Positions 2,166 to 46,385 of a stretch of DNA of 64,000 bases are shown in pieces. This stretch comes from an uncultured delta proteobacterium (lineage in GTDB: Bacteria > Myxococcota_A > Polyangia > Palsa-1104), in assembly GCA_963816965.1 (NCBI GenBank), contig CAWFMP010000002.1, forward strand, positions 3,796,313-3,860,312, read 5' to 3'. Position 1 is the stretch's first letter, and every line of letters begins with the position of its first letter. Below the pieces are notes generated by a model that saw only the letters and a program-made list of their open reading frames with translations, made no database searches and was not told the origin of the DNA. The translations under genes were made by a program, and so were the position numbers.

Positions 2166-5100
2166 TCAGACGTCGAGCGGCAACAGCCAGGGGGCGCGCC
2201 AGCGCCGGGGCGTGAACTTGCGCTCGGCCGACATCGCGTTGGCCTCGGCATACAAGGCGTTGCGACGCGGATCCGACGGCGGCAAGACATCGAGCAGATC
2301 CTCGAGCAGTCGCATGCGGAAGCAGGGGATGGCGCGGGCCCGCGAGCGCTCCTCGGCGAGCGTGAGCAGCGCCAGCCCCTCGTCGTGGCGGCCGAGCGCG
2401 AGCGCGACCACGGCCCGATCGTGGAGCAGGCGCGCCGCGAACAGCGGCGGCTCGAGCGCGGGCGTCTGCTTGAGCGCCCGCTCGGCCTCCTCGACCAGCG
2501 TGCGCGCGGCATCGTGCTGGCCGATGCGCGCCAGCCGGTTGGCCTCGGCGAGGAAGGCGCGGGTCACCCCGTCGGCGCACTCGAACGCGCCGGTCGTCGG
2601 CGACAGCGCCCCGCGGCGGATGCGCGGCAGCATGGTGCGCGCCAGCCGCGCCGCCGCCTCGGTGTCGCCGTCGAGCAGCTTCATCTCGACCAGCTGATAG
2701 GTGAACAGCGAGCGGTGCGTCCAGGGCAGCTCGGCCGGATCGACGCTCTCGACATCGGCGAGCAGGCGCCACGCGGTCTCCTTGTCGCCGCGCATGCGCT
2801 CGATGTAGGCCAGGCGCACGATGTCGAGCGGCGTCAGCGCCTCGCCGCGGTGCGCGGCGCTGCGCGACACGTCGGTGACGAACTTGTCGTACTCGCCGGC
2901 GAGGAAGAACGCGTTCTGCCGCTGCAGCGCCAGGTAGCCCGCCTTGGCGATGCGCAGCTCGGTAAACTCGTCCCACCACCGGATCGAGCGATCGGGGCGG
3001 CCCGAGACCATCTCGTACAGCGCGCGCATCAGCGGCAGCCACATGCGCGCGCGATCTCCAGCGACGCGCGCCGCGCCCTCCTCGAGGGCGTCGAAGTGCG
3101 CCTGCACGCGGCGGTCGATGCGCCCGCCCAGGTGCGCGAACGGCAATAGCAGGATCAGCGAGACCGCTTCGGCCTCCTGCCTCACCTCGGGCGAGGGCGA
3201 GCGCGCTCCGAGAAGGCGATAGCGCAGCGCGAACTCGAGCTGCTCCAGGTTGCGCGAGGTGAACTGATAGTGCGGGATGGCCATCGAATAGGTGAACAGC
3301 CGCACGGTGGTCTCCGGATCGTCCGCCGGCCGCGGCGGCTTCTTCACCAGGCCCCCGAAGATGACGCGGACGAGCAGCCACACCACCGACAAGAGCCGCA
3401 GGATCCGCGGGCGCGCCGGCGAGTGGCCCAGCGCCGCCAGCACCTCCTGCGAGAGCACGCCCGACGCCTCGAGATCCCCGTCGACCATGAGGCAGTTGGC
3501 GAGGTGCGTCTGGTTCCACAAGCGGTCGATCGGCGGCAGCTCGGCTGCTTGCAGCCCCTGCCGGTAGTGCTCGATGGCGTCGCGGAAGCGGCCGGCGCCT
3601 TCGAGCGAGTGCGCCAGGCGCAAGCGCAGGTAGGCTGCCTTCGCCGGCTCCTTGCAGTGGCGCAGCGCCAGTTGGTAGAGATCGACCGCGCGCGCGTGGG
3701 CGAGCTTGCGCAGCGCCGAGTCGGCGGCGGCCTCCGCGTGCGCGGCGGCGCGCGCCTCTTGCCCGGCCAGGAGCAGCTCGCGCACCAGCGACTCGGCGTC
3801 CTCCGGGCGCAGCTGGGCGATGGTCTCGGCGAGGCGGCGGTGCAGGATGCGCGTGCGCGGCTCGGGGATCTCGGCCTTGATCGCCTCGCGGATCCGGTTG
3901 TGGTAGAAGTCGTAGCGCTCGTCGCCCAGCGAGGTGCCGCGGCGGCTCGATTCGCGCAGGATCTTGAGCCCGCACAGGCGGCGTAGCCCGGCGCCTTCCA
4001 GCGAGAGCGCGCGCGAGTCTTCCATCAGCGCCGCGCGCAAGAGCTCGGCGTCGATGGGCCCCGGCGTGATTGCCGCCAGCTCGACCAGCGCCATCTCGTC
4101 GACGTTGAGGATCGACAAGCGGCGGCGCACGACCATCGACACCGTCGGGACCTCGAGCTCGGGGTGCTCCGAGTGCAGCCGCGCCAGCTCGACCAGGAGG
4201 AACGGGTTGCCGGCCGCCTCCTTGCCGATCTGCTCCACGGCGGCCGGCACGAACTCGGCCGACTTCTGCAGCGCGCTCTCGACCACGCGCGCGCCGTCCT
4301 CGGCACAAAGAGGGCCCAGCCACAGCTGCGTCAGCACCTCGTCACCGCCGGGGCGGCGCAGGGTGCGCAGGAAGCGATCGAGCGCCTCGCCGTCCGATTC
4401 GCCCGGTGGCCAGGCGGTCGCCATGACGAACAGGCCGGGCGCGGCGGGCGCGTGCAACAGGTAGGCGAGCAGCGCCAGCGAGTCTTCGTCCGCCCAGTGC
4501 AGGTCGTCGAGCAGCAGCACCAGCGGGCGGTGCGCGGCGACGCGCCCGACGAGCCGTTTGACCACGGCGAAGGCGCGCTCGCGATCGACCTCGGCGGGGA
4601 GCGACTCGATGGCCTCGGCGGTCGCCAGCTCGCGCAGGACCGGGAACAGCCGCGCCAGCAGGGCCAGATCGTCGCCGATGGCCTCGGCGAGCGACGCCTT
4701 GCCGAGCTCGCCCTTCTGCACGGCGCGCTCGAGCAGCGCAGCGGCGCCGTCGACGACCTGATCGAACGCGTTGTAGGTGACCGCTTCGTGCTCGCGGCAC
4801 GCACCGCGCAGGACGATGCAGCCGGCGTCGCGCGCCTCGTCGAGGATCGCCTCGGCCAGGGCGCTCTTGCCGATGCCCGACTCGCCGGAGATGAGCGCCA
4901 TGTGGCAGGTGGCGTGGCGCGTCCGCTCCAGCAGATCGACGAGGACGGCGCGCTCGGTGGCGCGGCCGACGATGCCGCCGTCGGTGAGCGCGGGAAACTG
5001 GTTCGACCCCCACTCGCGCGCGCGGTGCCGCGCCGGCGTCGCCGGCGCGCCGCACGCCTCGAGCGCCTGGCGGGCGGCGCGCGGCGAGGCGAAGCGCTCC

Positions 5101-16978: not shown

Positions 16979-17530
16979 CTAGGGCGAGGTGAAGGCGACG
17001 GGGTTGTACTGGGACAGATAGACGCGGCTGGTGTCGGCGCCGGTGAAGTAGATCTGCGCCGGCGCACCGTCGATGCGCAGGTCGACATAGATCGGATCGG
17101 CCGAGGGCACGAAGTCGACGCCGTCGGGCGTGTCCTGGGGCACCGACGAGAAGTCGATGGCGCTGCCGTCGGCCTGGACGGCGATCTGCTCGCGGCCGCT
17201 CAGCGGCGTCACGCTCGACGGGTCGATGACTCCGTCGCTGGAGACGCTGCCGGTGAAGCTGCTGGTGGAGCCGGCCAGCGCGACCCAGGCGATGCGGTAG
17301 CCGCCCTGCCCATTGGCGGTGACGACGAAGCCGAGCTCGTCGCCCGGCACTTCGCTGGCGGCGCCCGGGCGCACGTGGTAGCCGAGCTGGCCGCGCACGC
17401 CGAGCGGCACGGGGCTATCGGGCGGCGGGCCGCTGGCGCAGCCGGCCAGACACACAGAGGCGCACAAGGGGAGGGCGAGGGCGAGGGCGACCCGGCGCAT
17501 GCCTGGAATCATGACACGCCGCCGGCTCAA
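16979..17530 (-). CDS. Hypothetical lipoprotein, paralog A of tandem pair
   Basis: Signal peptide + LAGCAS lipobox; shares GF(V/I)TANGQGGYR and C-terminal PVAFTSP with upstream neighbour. Confidence 0.7.
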   Translation of the reverse strand: MSRRRVMIPGMRRVALALALPLCASVCLAGCASGPPPDSPVPLGVRGQLGYHVRPGAASEVPGDELGFVVTANGQGGYRIAWVALAGSTSSFTGSVSSDGVIDPSSVTPLSGREQIAVQADGSAIDFSSVPQDTPDGVDFVPSADPIYVDLRIDGAPAQIYFTGADTSRVYLSQYNPVAFTSP

Positions 17531-18105: not shown

Positions 18106-18286
18106 TGTTCGTCTCCAGGCTCGCTATGTCGGTGAGACGTGCCGCCCGCGCCTTTGTTCAACCGGCCAACTTCGCGGATTCCCAGACGGTGCGTGTAGGT
18201 CTGGAGTGCATCTCGTACATGCGGACCGAGCGTGAGGGCCGGGCCGCAAGCAGCGCGAGGCGCGACGACCGCGAATACCTCGACGG

Positions 18287-18868
18287 CTCATGATTCATCA
18301 CATCTCCGCATTTGATTGAGCGAACGGCATCGCAGCGAGAGCGTGCCCAAACGCCATCCTTGGTGGCAGTGTCGCCGGTTGGCGCCGAGGGGCCGCGGGA
18401 GGTCGTCGGAGCCGTCTTGCCGGGACGGGCCCGCCACGCCGGCGGCCTTACCGGCCGGCGGCACGTCCGGGCCCTCGGCTCGTCGCTGGCAACCGCCCTG
18501 CGGGCGGAGCGCTCCTCGACGCCCGGCAAGACGGCCCCGCCGACCGCCCGCTCTATGGGCTCGTGGGAACCTTCAGCCAAGCACGATTGTCGAAGCTCCC
18601 GCGTCGTCGAGAGCAGCCTCTCCACCCGCTGCGACCGTCCGGTTCTTGGACGAGCACAGAGGCTCCGCGCGCACTGCCCCGCTGGGCGAGTTCCGCAGCA
18701 CCGGCAAGGGGTCTAATCGAGCACGGAGGTGCGGTGGCGAGGACTGTTTGAGCCCAGCGGGGCAGTGCGCGCGGAGCCGGACGTGGCGCTTTGGCGCGCT
18801 CTCGATGCAACGCGGGTCTGAAAGCGGAACCTTTCGAGAGCTCGAACCGAGATGTGATGAATCATGAG
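18287..18868. mobile_element. MITE-like non-autonomous element: perfect 20-bp terminal inverted repeats flanked by a 10-bp target-site duplication
   Basis: TIR-L CTCATGATTCATCACATCTC (18287..18306) is the exact reverse complement of TIR-R (18849..18868); direct repeat ACCTCGACGG at 18277..18286 and 18869..18878; 582 bp, no transposase-sized ORF. Confidence 0.6.
18661..18778. repeat. 26-bp perfect inverted repeat (long hairpin) inside the MITE-like element
   Basis: GGCTCCGCGCGCACTGCCCCGCTGGG at 18661..18686 and its exact reverse complement at 18753..18778, 66-nt spacer. Confidence 0.6.
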
Positions 18869-18964
18869 ACCTCGACGGTATTCAAGGGAGAAGCAACGCA
18901 GCGATGCGCCGCGGAGCGGCCATCACGCGACGGGAGTATTTGCGAGATGCACTCTAACCTTGGA

Positions 18965-20341
18965 CTAGCGCAGCGAGCCTTCGCGTACGCCCTTGGCGAC
19001 CATGCCGAGCTTCTCCCAGATCTTCTCGCCCAGCCCGACCAGCGAGCGCACCCGCCCGGACACCGACGGCTCGTTGACCTCGCCCCGCAGCACCGACGAC
19101 GTCGACTTGGTCGCCACCGTGACGTACTCGCGCAAGAACGCCGGCAGGCTGCTCTCGTGCCCCGACAACAGCGCCATCGAGCGGGCCCGCGCGCCCGCCG
19201 AGTCGTTCCAGTACTGGAAGATGCCGGCGCGGATGGCGCGCGCGCCTTCGTCGGTGCCGCGGAAGACCTCGTAGAGCGCATCGGCGAGGATCTCGCGCGC
19301 GCGCACGAAGCGGTAGCGCTCGGTCTGATAGCGCGACAGCGCGCGATCGACCGCGGCGCGATCGGCAAGGTCGATGCCCGCCAGCGCGGCGGCGGCCAGG
19401 CGCGTGTCGTTGAGCGCGACGGTCATGCCGGTCGCCGTCAGCGGATGCGAGCAGCCGGCCGAATCGCCGATGAGCGCCGCGCCCGGCACGGTGCACTCGT
19501 CGGTGTAGATGGCGTAGTTGGCGGCGACCTCGATGTCGCCGCCGTCGAGCGCCTGGACGAGCGTCGCCCGCACGCCCGCGGGCAGGTGGGGCGCGTAGTC
19601 GGCGCGGATGCGGGCGATGACCGCCTCTTTGCCCTTGTCCATGTCCGACGGCAGGTCGATGCAGGTGCGGGCATCGCGGGCGCCGATCGGGTAGACGAGG
19701 ATCGGCCCCCAGGCGCCGAGGAAGATGTGCCCATAGCCGGGCTGCGGCAGCGGGCACGCCTGCAGGAGCGCCGCGGCGGTGAACGACAACAGGCGCGCGT
19801 GCTCGGGCATCTCGATGAGCGCGCGAATCTTCGAATGGCGCCCGTCGCAGGCGAGCACCACCGGCGCCAGCACCGGCCCCGACGCTGTCATGACGCCGAC
19901 CACGCGCTCCTGGTCGCGCACCAGATCGACGACGCGCTCGCCCAGGCGCAGCTCGACGTTGGGCCGCTCGAGCGTCTTTGTGCGCAGGGTGTCGACCAGG
20001 TCGTGATGATCGATGGCGAAGCCGAACGGGCGCGAGCCCGGGATCTCCTCGTAGGGCAAAAGCGTCGTCGGCTTGTGCGCCGACTGCACCACCGCGAAGC
20101 CGCGCACGTCGGCGCCGCCCGCCTCGTGCAGCGGGCCCAAGAAGCCGCGCTCGTCGAGCACGTCGACGCCGTGGGGATGGATCAGCTCGCCGTTGAAGCG
20201 CGGGTTGCGTCCGGCGCGCGCTTCGAGCACGAGGATCTTGCGCCGCCCGTCGGCATCGGCGAGCGCGCTGGCCATGGCGCAACCCGACAGACCGCCGCCG
20301 ACCACGATGACGTCGTACCGAGGTGCGCTCGTGAGCTCCAT
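18965..20341 (-). CDS. FAD-dependent oxidoreductase / monooxygenase (geranylgeranyl-reductase-like)
   Basis: 458-aa ORF; N-terminal Rossmann dinucleotide motif DVIVVGGGLSGCAMA; GD-type FAD motif region. Confidence 0.75.
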   Translation of the reverse strand: MELTSAPRYDVIVVGGGLSGCAMASALADADGRRKILVLEARAGRNPRFNGELIHPHGVDVLDERGFLGPLHEAGGADVRGFAVVQSAHKPTTLLPYEEIPGSRPFGFAIDHHDLVDTLRTKTLERPNVELRLGERVVDLVRDQERVVGVMTASGPVLAPVVLACDGRHSKIRALIEMPEHARLLSFTAAALLQACPLPQPGYGHIFLGAWGPILVYPIGARDARTCIDLPSDMDKGKEAVIARIRADYAPHLPAGVRATLVQALDGGDIEVAANYAIYTDECTVPGAALIGDSAGCSHPLTATGMTVALNDTRLAAAALAGIDLADRAAVDRALSRYQTERYRFVRAREILADALYEVFRGTDEGARAIRAGIFQYWNDSAGARARSMALLSGHESSLPAFLREYVTVATKSTSSVLRGEVNEPSVSGRVRSLVGLGEKIWEKLGMVAKGVREGSLR

Positions 20342-39944: not shown

Positions 39945-41140
<1,196 letters not shown>

Positions 41141-41151
<11 letters not shown>

Positions 41152-42822
41152 TGCGGCACCCGCGGTCCGTGCGCGGCCGAAAACGCGATCGCCTCGTGGT
41201 AGCCCGCGTCGGCGTGGCGGAGCACGCCCATCGCCGGATCGGTCGTGAGCACGCGCTCGAGGCGCCGCGCCGCGCGCGTCGCGTGCCGTCGGCGACGACG
41301 ACCATGCCCGCGTGCTGCGAGTAGCCGATGCCGACGCCGCCGCCGTGGTGGACGCTGACCCAGGTCGCGCCCGCGGCGCTGTTGACCAGCGCGTTCAGGA
41401 TGGCCCAGTCGGCGATGGCGTCGGAGCCGTCCTTCATCGCCTCGGTCTCGCGGTTCGGCGACGCCACCGAGCCGCAGTCGAGGTGATCGCGGCCGATGAC
41501 GATCGGCGCCTTGACCTTGCCCGTGCGCACCAGCTCGTTGAACGCCAGGCCGGCGCGGTCGCGCTCGCCGTAGCCGAGCCAGCAGATGCGCGCCGGCAGC
41601 CCCTGGAACTGCGACGCGCTCGCCGGCCAGCTGCGATCCAGCGGTGCAGATGCGGCGTCGTCGGGGAACAGCTCGAGGACCGCGCGTCGGTGACGCGCGA
41701 TGTCGTCCGGATCGCCCGAGAGCGCCACCCAGCGGAACGGCCCCTTGCCCTCGCAGAAGAGCGGGCGGATGTACGCCGGCACGAAGCCCGGGATCGTCGA
41801 AGCGCGTCGTCGACGCCGGCCGTCAGCGCGCCTGGCCGCGCAGGTTGTTGCCGTAGTCGAAGACGTGCGCGCCGCGCTTCTTCAGCGTCGAGCATCGCGC
41901 GCGACCTGCTCGGCCATCGGCGCGCGCGCGCGCTCGACGTACTCCTGCGGATCGCGCGCGCGCAGCTCGGCGGCCTGCGCCGAGCTCGACGCCCGGCCGG
42001 CACGTAGCCGCGCAGCGGATCGTGCGCCGAGGTCTGGTCGGTGACGAGATCGGGCACGACGCCGCGCCGCACCAGCTCGGGCAGGACGTCGGCGGCGTTG
42101 CCCTCGAGCCCGACGGAGAGGGCGCGCCCCTCCTTGCGCGGCGCGCTCGCAGCGGCGCGAGCGCGTCGTCGAGATCGCGCGCCTGCTCGTCGAGGTAGCG
42201 CGTCTCGAGGCGCCGCTGCGATGCGCGCCGGATCGACCTCGACGCCGAGGAAGACGCCGCCGCCATCGTCACCGCGAGCGGCTGCGCGCCGCCCATGCCG
42301 CCGAGGCCCGCCGGTGACGACGAAGCGTGCCCTGCAGATCGGCGCCGGGCCCGTAGTGCCGCGCGCGGCCGCGGCGAAGGTCTCGTAGGTGCCCTGCAGG
42401 ATGCCCTGCGTGCCGATGTAGATCCACGAGCCCGCGGTCATCTGGCCGTACATGATGAGGCCCGCCTTCTCGAGCTCGCGGAACTTGCTCCCAGGTCGCC
42501 CAGTGCGGCACGAGGTTGGAGTTGGCGATGAGCACGCGCGGCGCGTCGGCGTGGGTCTTGAAGCACGCCGACCGGCCTTGCCCGACTGCACGAGCAGCGT
42601 CTCGTCGTCGCCGAGCGCTTCGAGCTCGCGCACGATCACGTCGAACGCCTCCCACGTGCGCGCCGCCTTGCCGGTGCCGCCGTAGACGACGAGATCCTCC
42701 GGGCGCTCGGCGACCTCGGGATCGAGGTTGTTCATGAGCATGCGCAGGGCGGCCTCCTGCACCCAGCCCTTGCAGCGGAGGGTCGTGCCGCGCGGCGCGC
42801 GAATTGTGCGAGGTTGCGACAT
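41141..42822 (-). pseudogene. hutU: Urocanate hydratase with multiple frame interruptions
   Basis: [12 protein letters not shown]…LLVQSGK N-terminus, [40 protein letters not shown], …[23 protein letters not shown] and tail …[22 protein letters not shown] found in different frames. Confidence 0.75.
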
Positions 42823-42875
42823 GGCGGGCACAGTAGCAGGGTAGAATGCCTCAGGGAACGATCGATGGACTGGCG

Positions 42876-43650: not shown

Positions 43651-43735
43651 CGCGCGGACTGGCGCAATGCTGTTCACTCTGGCCGGCCCGCTACGATTCG
43701 GCCACAGAGAACGGCATTGCGGCTAGTACCTCGCC
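43651..43735. repeat. Palindromic intergenic element related to 25271..25357
   Basis: Imperfect hairpin CGCAATGCtGTTCaCTCTG / CAGAGaACgGCATTGCG plus shared GAACGGC(A/G)TTGC(G/C)GCTAG block. Confidence 0.35.
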
Positions 43736-43888
43736 ACAGTGATTTTGATTGGTATCCGCCGAGGATTCGGCGCCCAGGGCGAGGCGCGACGACGAGGGAA
43801 TACTGTCTGTATTTCGAGGAGGAGCAACGAAGCCATGGGCGTCGAGGACCGGCGCAGACCGGTCGAAATCACTGTGGCGAGGTACTAG
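43723..43888. repeat. 23-bp perfect inverted repeat with 120-nt spacer in convergent intergenic region
   Basis: CTAGTACCTCGCCACAGTGATTT (43723..43745) and exact reverse complement (43866..43888); right arm overlaps GMC stop codon. Confidence 0.5.
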
Positions 43889-45397
43889 GCGCAGAGCCGG
43901 GTCGATGCCACGGTCGCGACGCTCATGATCGAGTGCTGCGGGTTGACGCCGGTGTTGGTGGGAAACACGCTGGCGTCCATGACGTAGAGGCCGTCGACGC
44001 CGTGGACCTTGAGCGTCGGGTCGACCACGCTGGTGGCGGCGTCGCGCCCGGCGCGGCAGCCGCCGAACAGGTGCGTCATGACCAGGCTGTAGGCGCGCGG
44101 ATCGAGCGGCGCGGCGTCGAACGCCGGCAGCTGGTCGGGCGAGGTCAGCGTCTCGGGTAGCCCGGCGATGCCGGTGACCACCTCACGCGCGCCGGCGGCG
44201 AAGTGCATCTCGGCGAGCGTGCGCATGGCGCTGCGCAGCCGCTCCAGATCGCCGGGCAGCAGATCGTAGCGCACGTAGTCGCCAAACAGCAGCGACGGGC
44301 GCACGCTGCCCTCGGCCGCGGCTTTGAGCGCCACCGCCCAGTTGGCCACGTGCGGCAGCTCCGCCAGACGCTGAGCGAAGCGCGCCCCGACGCCGGGGAG
44401 GCGCGCCGCGGTCACCTCCGGCGGTACGTTGATCGTCTCGAACTTCACGCCCAGGGTGTCGCGCAGGCCGAACGCTTCGTAGCCTTGCGAGGCGCCGGTC
44501 CAGGAGTCGACGCGCGACGGGTACAGGCCCATCAGCGCCGTGCCCGGGTGGGCCATGAAGTGCCGGCCCAGGTGCGCGGAGCGGACCCCCGAGCGCCACA
44601 AGAGGTTCGACGATTGGATGCAGCCGCCGGCGACGATGACGGCGCGGCGCGCGGCGACGCGGAAGCGCTGGCCGCGCTCGGGCCCGTCGCCGCCGAAGCG
44701 GCCGCGCACGGCGACGGCGCGCCCGCCCGCCCGTTCGATGCGCTCGACGCGCGCGTCGGCGACCACGAAGCCGCCGTCGGCGACGGCGCGCCGGAGCGAC
44801 GTCACCGCGGTCGACTGCTTGGCCTCGTGCGGGCAGCCATGGAAGCAGCGGCTGGAGCCGCGGCAGCCGCGCTCGTAGCGATGGATGAAGCGTCCTTCGA
44901 TGCCCACCTCTTTGGCGCCGGCGCGCAACAGCAGAATCCGACTTGCTCGCCGTCACCCCTTCGACGACGGCGCGTTCCGACAGCTCCTCTTCGATACGCG
45001 CCGCCGCCGCGTCGAGCGCCGCCTCGGGCAGCGCCTCGGCGAGCCCGAAGTCGCGGTGCCACAGCGCCAGCACCTTGGGCGGCAGCCGCCACACGATCGC
45101 CGAGTTGACGAACGTGGTGCCGCCGACGCAGCGCCCCTGCAGGATCGGCGTGGTCGCGCGCCCGAAGGCCGCCTGCTTGCCCTGGTAGCGAAAGAGCCGA
45201 TTGCGCGTCGCCCCTTCGGAGACGCCGAGCTCGTCGGTGCGCAGCCGCGGCCCCTCCTCGAGCACCACCACGCGCGCACCCGAGGCGGCCAGCACGCGCG
45301 CCGCCGCGCCGCCGCCGGCGCCGGAGCCGACGATCACGAAGTCGGCCTCTTCGAGCGGCAGCCCGGCGCTCCCGCCGTCGACGAAGGCGCCGCTCAT
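43885..45397 (-). CDS. GMC-family FAD oxidoreductase, one frameshift near 44940
   Basis: N-terminus MSGAFVDGGSAGLPLEEADFVIVGSGAGGG (Rossmann GxGxxG) in one frame (inside track ORF 44183..46357); C-terminal 347 aa in track ORF 43885..44928. Confidence 0.7.
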
Positions 45398-46385
45398 GAC
45401 GACGCGCTCCGCTTGCCCAGCGTCATCGGCGGCGGCAGGCGGTAGGCGCCGAGCCCGGCCAGCGTCGCCTCGTCGCCGAGCAGGAGCGTGCAAATCGCCA
45501 GCTTCAGAAAGAGCCCGGTCATGCGCACGGTGTAGCGCGGGTGCTTGAGCAGGCGCTCGAGCAGCGCCACGCGCGTGGCGCCGTCGAGACCGCCGAAGGT
45601 GCGCACGCGCCCCAGGAGCCACAGCGGCGCCAGCCAGGTCAGCCACAGCGACGCGCGAAACAGCGATCCCCACGTACCAGGGCGAGATCGCGCACTCGTC
45701 GGCGTAGCGGGTCCCGAGATCGATCGCATCCAGCGCGCCGCCGAGCGCACCCTCGGGGACGAGCGTCCGCGCGATCGTCGCCGCCCAGCGCTGCTCGAAC
45801 GGCAGCAGCGTCACGCTGGCCCGAGCAGCGCCGCGAGCGCGCGCCACACCGCCCGACGAAACTCGGCGTCCTTCTCGATCAGCGCCACCCGCTTTTGCAC
45901 GACGTCGACGTCGAGGTAGAGCTCGCCGCCCGGGCAGAAGAGCTTGAGGTGCAGCTTGCGCGGGTAGGTCGAGTCGCCGTCCCGCGTCACCAGGAGCGCC
46001 GCGAAGCGCGCCTCGCCGCCGGTGCGCTCCTTGTGAAACATCTGCTTCCAACGCGAGCGCGCGGGCGGGATCTCCTGCTCGAGCACGACCGCGGCCGCCT
46101 GCACGAAGCGCTCGGTCGCTTCGCCCACCGACGACAACACGACCGCGTCGGCCTGCACGTGCGCCAGCGGATTGACCGCGCCGGCGACGCGTGACGGCTG
46201 CAGCCCGCCGGCGATGTGCAGGCCGAAGGCCGCCTCGCCGCCTTCGAACTTGTTGCGCGCGACGGCGTTGACACTGCCGTCGGTACCGAGCTCGAGCGCG
46301 TCGGCGGCCATCACCAGCTTCGCGACGTCGTCCTCGGGCACGGGCAGACGATAGCACACAGACATTTCAACCAAGCTTCGCGCGC

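Follow-up and report, generated by a model that had tools for sequence, protein, structure and literature searches.

In Tn5/IS50-type mobilisation, the 19-bp ends are the sole requirement in cis. REP and REPIN sequences are short palindromes of ~20-40 nt, high in copy number and associated with RAYT, and the insertion sequences IS1397 and ISKpn1 land in REP loops. For the IS50 subgroup of the IS4 family, the end signature CW------Y---CA-A--W- and direct repeats of 8-9 bp have been tabulated, alongside target duplications of ~10 bp for the IS4 family (PMC2266710, Table 1). The locus described here shares features with each of these systems, and with nested ("Russian doll") MITEs.

We analysed a 64-kb stretch of DNA (the window; G+C 71.7%) from contig_12655 (1.99 Mb) of ENA assembly ERZ25039538, in which no perfect inverted repeat with a loop of up to 300 nt is longer than a 27-bp hairpin. 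With a probability of roughly 55%, we read this hairpin as lying at the core of a dispersed palindromic repeat of ~190 nt, intergenic and found in a Polyangia-like lineage, which is carried as a passenger in a 582-bp non-autonomous IS50-type MITE. Most economically, the whole locus is read as selfish or structural repeats stacked on one another. The hairpin consists of the following parts.

18661..18687, unstranded: left arm, 27 nt, GGCTCCGCGCGCACTGCCCCGCTGGGC, 100% complementary to the right arm in the inverted-repeat scan
18752..18778, unstranded: right arm, 27 nt, the exact complement of GGCTCCGCGCGCACTGCCCCGCTGGGC; the loop between the arms, 18688-18751, is 64 nt

An earlier note on this DNA had described a perfect hairpin of 26 bp around a 66-nt spacer; the perfect inverted repeat is real, and it is the arm length (27 nt) and the spacer (64 nt) that need correction. 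In 60 dinucleotide-preserving shuffles of the window, the longest perfect inverted repeats reached 12-16 nt, against the 27 observed. The description as a very stable stem-loop is borne out by RNA folding, which gave -89.7 kcal/mol (z -7.4) on the plus strand and -83.9 kcal/mol (z -8.3) on the minus strand, while the 64-nt loop by itself shows no structure in excess of shuffled sequence. A U-tail is missing, with no T-run 3' of the stem on either strand; the terminator scan did not call the hairpin, and its 64-nt loop is not that of an intrinsic terminator. A single weak terminator-like site (n=1) lies in an arm of the outer repeat described below. No sigma-70-like promoter was found within the 582-bp element, and this result, with the missing U-tail, gives no support to the suggestion that a MITE is delivering a promoter or terminator here. 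The whole window had no Rfam match at gathering thresholds. At E-value thresholds, the region and the second copy of the outer repeat (copy B) returned nothing credible, and the second copy of the module (on contig L026) returned nothing; the weak matches that did appear, such as mir-330 at 24 bits against a threshold of 60, were at chance level.

The hairpin lies between a squalene-epoxidase-like gene and a pair of lipoprotein genes, in a composite insertion.

18965..20341, minus strand: squalene-epoxidase-like gene (Pfam PF08491, 4e-42), its stop codon 10 nt from the insertion
18204..18954, unstranded: whole composite insertion, 751 bp, absent from the syntenic contigs L006 and L008
18133..18161, minus strand: TTGAACAAAG-N12-CGTCTCA, a block 5' of the lipoprotein gene that does not vary among the window, L006, L007 and L008
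17527..18105, minus strand: lipoprotein gene, the nearer of the pair to the insertion and downstream of it
16979..17530, minus strand: second gene of the lipoprotein pair

Read on the minus strand, the squalene-epoxidase-like gene is followed by an 859-nt gap and then by the two lipoprotein genes; homologues of the neighbouring lipoprotein carry the name "Polyangia bacterium" wherever they are named. The gap holds nested inverted repeats and folds far better than shuffled sequence on both strands (z -10.6 and -15.6), and the ORFs in it and in the 582-bp element have no Pfam match. From squalene epoxidase to lipoprotein gene, the syntenic contigs L006 and L008 have 43 nt and 35 nt, respectively, against ~765-800 nt in the window. 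On one side, flank homology takes up again at the stop codon of the squalene-epoxidase gene; on the other, it does so at window position ~18201 (L006) or ~18165 (L008). As the flanks align with only these 43 or 35 nt between them, the composite at 18204-18954 is missing from both relatives. These empty sites lend support to the mobility implied by the label "MITE-like" in the earlier note; its picture of a single MITE with a hairpin core gives way to a nest of at least three different repeats.

The GAAC and CGTC motifs of the block upstream of the lipoprotein genes are 16 nt apart, and we take the block to resemble an ECF-sigma promoter. The wider conserved region (18133-18201, minus strand) reads GACCTACACGCA ... 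TTGAACAAAG-N12-CGTCTCA across four genomes and has the look of an ECF-sigma-type promoter with an upstream site. The insertion ends exactly at the edge of this conserved stretch, which lies outside it. The lipoprotein genes thus retain their own upstream block, and the proposal that the element rewires their expression is therefore conjecture only. We also observed that the squalene-epoxidase homologue, in a Polyangia-like genome, adjoins a GH15 gene and may bear on bacterial sterol synthesis. Elsewhere in the window, overlapping ORFs take the place of single intact genes for urocanase (40709-42831) and GMC oxidoreductase (43885-46357), and in L006 and L008 the gene calls for squalene epoxidase and the lipoprotein are truncated; long-read assembly has probably introduced indels here, unless these are pseudogenes.

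Within the composite insertion, one repeat interrupts another, and an uninterrupted copy of the interrupted one lies elsewhere in the window.

18287..18868, unstranded: 582-bp non-coding element, classed as a MITE with IS50-subgroup-type ends from its terminal inverted repeats, target duplication and in-silico excision
18287..18306, plus strand: left terminal inverted repeat, 20 bp, perfect, CTCATGATTCATCACATCTC
18849..18868, plus strand: right terminal inverted repeat, 20 bp, perfect, GAGATGTGATGAATCATGAG
18277..18286, plus strand: left copy of the target-site duplication, ACCTCGACGG, a 10/10 direct repeat abutting the element
18869..18878, plus strand: right copy of the target-site duplication, ACCTCGACGG
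18395..18551, unstranded: second internal hairpin of the 582-bp element, with 30-nt arms (90% complementary) and a 97-nt loop
18204-18286 plus 18879-18954: outer repeat, copy A, with perfect terminal 12-mers GAGTGCATCTCG and the apex GAATACC-TCGAC-GGTATTC
43712..43899, unstranded: outer repeat, copy B, uninterrupted, between convergent genes

The outer arms (18204-18306 and 18849-18954) are 73% complementary. When 18287-18868 and one copy of the duplication were removed in silico, the remaining 159 nt of copy A formed a single hairpin (-91 kcal/mol), on whose apex, GAATACC-TCGAC-GGTATTC, the duplication is centred. This excised copy A aligns across the junction with positions 43775-43853 of copy B (60/81 identity, E=1e-8). 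Copy B, with 50-nt arms that are 84% complementary and a fold of -136 kcal/mol (z -13), shares a conserved asymmetric core with copy A and lacks the 582-bp element, so that it is an empty site for the latter. From the target duplication and the homology restored on excision, it follows that the 582-bp unit is a discrete insertion into the apical loop of the outer repeat. Here the locus resembles nested MITEs, in which excision of the inner element likewise restores the host repeat; it differs in that at least three unrelated families are stacked, each inner unit at or near a hairpin apex.

Some further features of the outer repeat were noted. Copy B overlaps the 3' end of the GMC-oxidoreductase ORF. 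Both copies (18887-18957 and 43818-43889, plus strand) bear a Shine-Dalgarno-like GGAGrAGCAACG, and an ATG 5-6 nt 3' of it opens a 17-codon ORF that runs to the arm's outer edge. The peptides encoded, MRRGAAITRREYLRDAL and MGVEDRRRPVEITVARY, are unrelated, and their equal length may be a coincidence.

The inner element has the marks of a MITE: perfect 20-bp terminal repeats, the 10/10 target duplication, 582 bp with no transposase gene, and empty sites. Its ORFs are Arg/Pro-rich, as expected from out-of-frame reading of GC-rich DNA, and the 64-kb window contains one copy of an element bounded by the 20-mer. We found no other copies of its second hairpin (18395-18551). A six-frame translation searched against 5.8 billion proteins had no match, a weak negative given that P0241, a protein that overlaps the hairpin (see below), is in that collection and was missed. 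CTCATGATTCATCACATCTC agrees with the IS50-subgroup signature at 7/7 conserved positions (chance ~1/2048 at equal base frequencies), and seven of eight variant 20-mer ends keep all seven. Target duplications of 10, 9, ~8 and ~9 bp in four elements fit the lengths known for the IS50 subgroup and the IS4 family. As no transposase bounded by the 20-mer, which for this subgroup would be a DDE enzyme with a YREK motif, was found in the family loci examined or among ten window ORFs scanned, the IS50-type assignment is drawn from two features, the end signature and the duplication length. On this basis, the inner element is filed as a MITE with IS50-subgroup-type ends, and its transposase is putative.

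The 20-mer also occurs in other organisms. A metagenome scan yielded 12 high-GC contigs, and a scan of GTDB representatives gave three matches, among which L004 (Opitutaceae) proved to carry an inverted pair; searches of viral contigs and PLSDB plasmids gave nothing relevant. The paired loci, with the distance spanned, the cargo and the target duplication, are as follows.

Window: 582 bp, non-coding cargo, duplication ACCTCGACGG, 10/10
L018: 235 bp, no cargo, duplication 7/8
L017: 261 bp, no cargo, duplication not recognisable
L019: 971 bp, PDDEXK_3 / GxxExxY protein, duplication 7/9
L011: 1218 bp, Y1_Tnp / REP-associated-tyrosine-transposase-like protein, duplication not recognisable
L016: 1255 bp, HNH endonuclease, duplication CCCGGTGGG, 9/9
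L004: 1838 bp, HNH endonuclease with homology to that of L016, duplication not recognisable

At all seven loci, the 20-mers form an inverted pair, the left copy on the minus strand and the right copy on the plus strand; outside the window, the pairs (L004, L011, L016, L017, L018 and L019) lie 0.24-1.8 kb apart on unrelated contigs. Conservation across the family is confined to the 20-mer and ends sharply on both sides. The target duplication is unrecognisable in three of the seven pairs, and where it is present the reconstructed target is dyad-symmetric, that of L016 being CCCTCTCC-CCCGGTGGG-GGAGAGGG. On L015, an HNH-type gene homologous to that of L016 adjoins a single 20-mer, and the DUF222/HNH-like cargo of L004, L015 and L016 shows 34-46% identity to the L016 protein. 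The contigs bearing nuclease-type cassettes (L004, L015, L016, L011 and L019) appear to come from different phyla.

We considered the HNH protein as the element's own enzyme and rejected this, as closer homologues (L021-L025) occur with neither the 20-mer nor flanking repeats; HNH is therefore cargo and not the mobilising enzyme. Two separate observations concern where such elements sit. Three independent 20-mer elements (L010, L016 and L019) lie in the loops of similar GC-rich palindromes (CCCTCTCC ... GGAGAGGG), which may constitute a REP-like target family. Two contigs (L012:5379-5398 and L018:4044-4063) share 99.8% identity over a 4-kb stretch that runs to the final base of the 20-mer, past which they are unrelated; this suggests a strain-level rearrangement or an insertion breakpoint exactly at the element's end.

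Taken as a family, these elements resemble the MITEs and mobile insertion cassettes of the IS4 family (IS231/MIC231, Tn5/IS50), in that two short inverted ends bound arbitrary DNA lacking a transposase, the duplications are 8-10 bp, the IS50 signature is complete (7/7), the targets are dyad-symmetric, and members carry different passenger genes or none. They differ in their hosts, which are high-GC Polyangia, Opitutaceae and uncultured soil or mat bacteria and not Bacillus or enterobacteria, and in their passengers, which are of nuclease type (HNH, Y1/RAYT-like, GxxExxY), except that the window copy carries palindromic repeats only. They differ also in that no cognate transposase was found for the 20-mer ends in the loci or the ten window ORFs.

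The hairpin itself belongs to a repeat that occurs independently of the 20-mer.

18611..18800, plus strand: ~190-nt dispersed repeat module containing the hairpin, homologous to L026:4180-4366

Copies of the module were sought by way of a 183-residue reading frame across the MITE, compared against 1.84 billion representative proteins. Two proteins, P0241 and P0242, matched over the hairpin region only; both are evidently spurious read-through ORFs running into intergenic DNA. P0241 maps to L026 (ENA ERZ25039538 contig_11713, 4.33 Mb), another contig of the window's assembly, where positions 4180-4366 are 86% identical to window positions 18619-18800 over 181 nt. An nhmmer profile of the module gave E=3e-61 and 6e-57, the second value being that of the L026 copy. 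This copy stands alone in the intergenic region between a beta-propeller-like gene and a lipoprotein gene, with no 20-mer nearby in the sequence read or in an inverted-repeat scan. P0242 derives from a third contig of 376 kb (NCBI/ENA), on which we infer a third copy, at the protein level, from the spurious ORF. No further copies were present in the 234 kb of sequence examined, and we found no terminal repeats or target duplication belonging to the ~190-nt module itself. Beside the L026 copy, at 4367-4420 and 4458-4493, lie a GCAGCC-type simple repeat and another palindrome (CGCGACAGCTGTATCGCCGGCGATACAGGTCGCGCG).

The earlier note had listed a lack of stem conservation among other copies as part of what would refute its proposal, and on that point the stem is kept. 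Of its 27 pairs, 25 do not vary between the window and L026 DNA, the pair at stem position 4 has changed in a compensatory way (U-A to C-G) and one is broken in L026; the codons of the P0242 peptide would imply C-G at position 4 and an intact position 24. The view that the hairpin is not random filler thus held up, the hairpin being the core of an independently conserved module. The two DNA copies differ at 3/54 stem, 9/64 loop and 6/34 flank positions (Fisher p=0.11, not significant); with two DNA copies, the lower divergence of the stem is a trend of the kind expected of a constrained stem. For covariation across two sequences, a lone compensatory pair proves nothing and the shuffles are uninformative.

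In being dispersed, GC-rich, intergenic and palindromic, the repeats of this locus resemble REP, BIME and REPIN sequences, and copy B of the outer repeat lies, as many REPs do, between convergent genes. The insertion of an element exactly in an apical loop (at the apex in the window, and in the loop between CCCTCTCC and GGAGAGGG in L016) recalls IS1397 and ISKpn1 in REPs; the inserting element here, however, has IS4-type and not IS3-type ends. The units are also far larger than REPs, at 190 nt for the module with its 27-bp stem and 64-nt loop and 160-190 nt for the outer repeat; only two to three copies of the module were seen, and no GTAG-type head was recognised. No RAYT gene adjoins the module in the window or in L026.

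The pattern of stem conservation raises the possibility that the ~190-nt module is a functional structured RNA under selection for pairing and that the MITE captured a functional cassette. Such an RNA could end transcription in both directions without a U-tail, stabilise 3' ends, be processed by RNase III or be a small RNA. The conserved stem with its compensatory change, the lower divergence of stem than of loop and flanks, and the very stable fold on both strands would all fit, as would the placement of the module downstream of a gene, in sense orientation, in both L026 and the P0242 contig. In the window, however, the module is antisense to both neighbouring genes. The statistics on two or three copies are not significant, the loop is not structured above shuffles, and the module has neither an Rfam match nor a U-tail. 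Moreover, perfect or near-perfect 27-bp GC duplexes are commoner in DNA palindromes than in selected RNA helices. We regard a structured RNA as unlikely.

On a broader version, the module would be a structured element of Polyangia not described before, selected for some function as RNA or as a DNA cruciform, for example to terminate transcription in both directions without a U-tail or to serve as an RNase III processing site. The IS50-type MITEs and nuclease cassettes (HNH, RAYT-like, GxxExxY) would in addition form a cross-phylum family that specifically targets hairpin apices. We think this combination quite unlikely to hold.

The 27-nt arms might instead be the terminal inverted repeats of a 118-bp MITE inside the 582-bp element, at a fourth level of nesting. 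Its size and arm length would be typical of MITEs, perfect arms would suggest youth, and the rest of the locus is nested throughout. No direct repeat flanks 18661-18778, however, and homology between the window and L026 extends past the left arm by ~50 nt and past the right arm by ~22 nt, so the arms are not the terminal repeats of a smaller MITE as far as this comparison goes, and we hold the idea to be improbable. The perfect dyad symmetry and the conservation of the arms between copies would also suit a DNA-level binding or cruciform site for a dimeric regulator, nucleoid protein or recombinase, but a 64-nt spacer between half-sites is atypical for a dimeric operator and the module copies have no associated gene in common, which leaves such a site very improbable. 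An artefact of long-read metagenome assembly is scarcely credible, even though the source is a long-read-style assembly in which several genes, as in its relatives, look frameshifted, because the same hairpin recurs with independent substitutions on the separate L026 contig and is implied by P0242 from a third, and because fold-back artefacts are usually kilobase-scale.

Other candidates were set aside. Protein coding was rejected, since the element's ORFs have no Pfam match and the differences between the window and L026 copies of the module show no codon-position bias. A retron msr/msd was dropped for want of a reverse transcriptase nearby, and a 23S rRNA intervening sequence, dif/pdif modules and an integron attC were dropped with no sequence or context to support them.

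Returning to the preferred reading, a dispersed palindromic repeat carried within an IS50-type MITE, we infer that the MITE moved by cut-and-paste, acted on in trans by a DDE transposase. A 10-bp staggered cut would have been centred on the apical loop of the outer palindrome, which lies 10 nt beyond the 3' end of the squalene-epoxidase gene. Rather than serving the host at this locus, the 27-bp stem probably persists because it defines the repeat, through maintenance of the palindrome at the DNA level or through whatever process disperses the repeat. If read-through from the squalene-epoxidase gene crosses the hairpin, the transcript would contain a long perfect duplex, as it would from either strand, among many other helices. 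That duplex could serve as a barrier or an RNase III-type processing site and so uncouple the lipoprotein genes, which have their own promoter-like block.

This is ordinary mobile-DNA biology, and the locus belongs to known kinds of system; the finding itself is real, non-random and conserved in part. The specific repeat families appear to be undescribed, as string and literature searches came back empty: full-text string searches returned nothing relevant, and a search for literature on MITEs in myxobacteria nothing useful. The locus illustrates that an eye-catching "structured" intergenic block can be a stack of mobile and palindromic repeats and not one regulatory RNA. It offers a clean, datable insertion, with empty sites in relatives, beside a gene of the bacterial sterol pathway, together with a 20-bp IS50-type end that has sharp limits and flanks very different cargo in several phyla, and a small family of hairpin repeats with a conserved stem. 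If the hairpin repeat proves to be a terminator or processing element, or if it is the transposase that directs elements to apices, knowledge of the architecture of high-GC genomes would in either case gain modestly but usefully.
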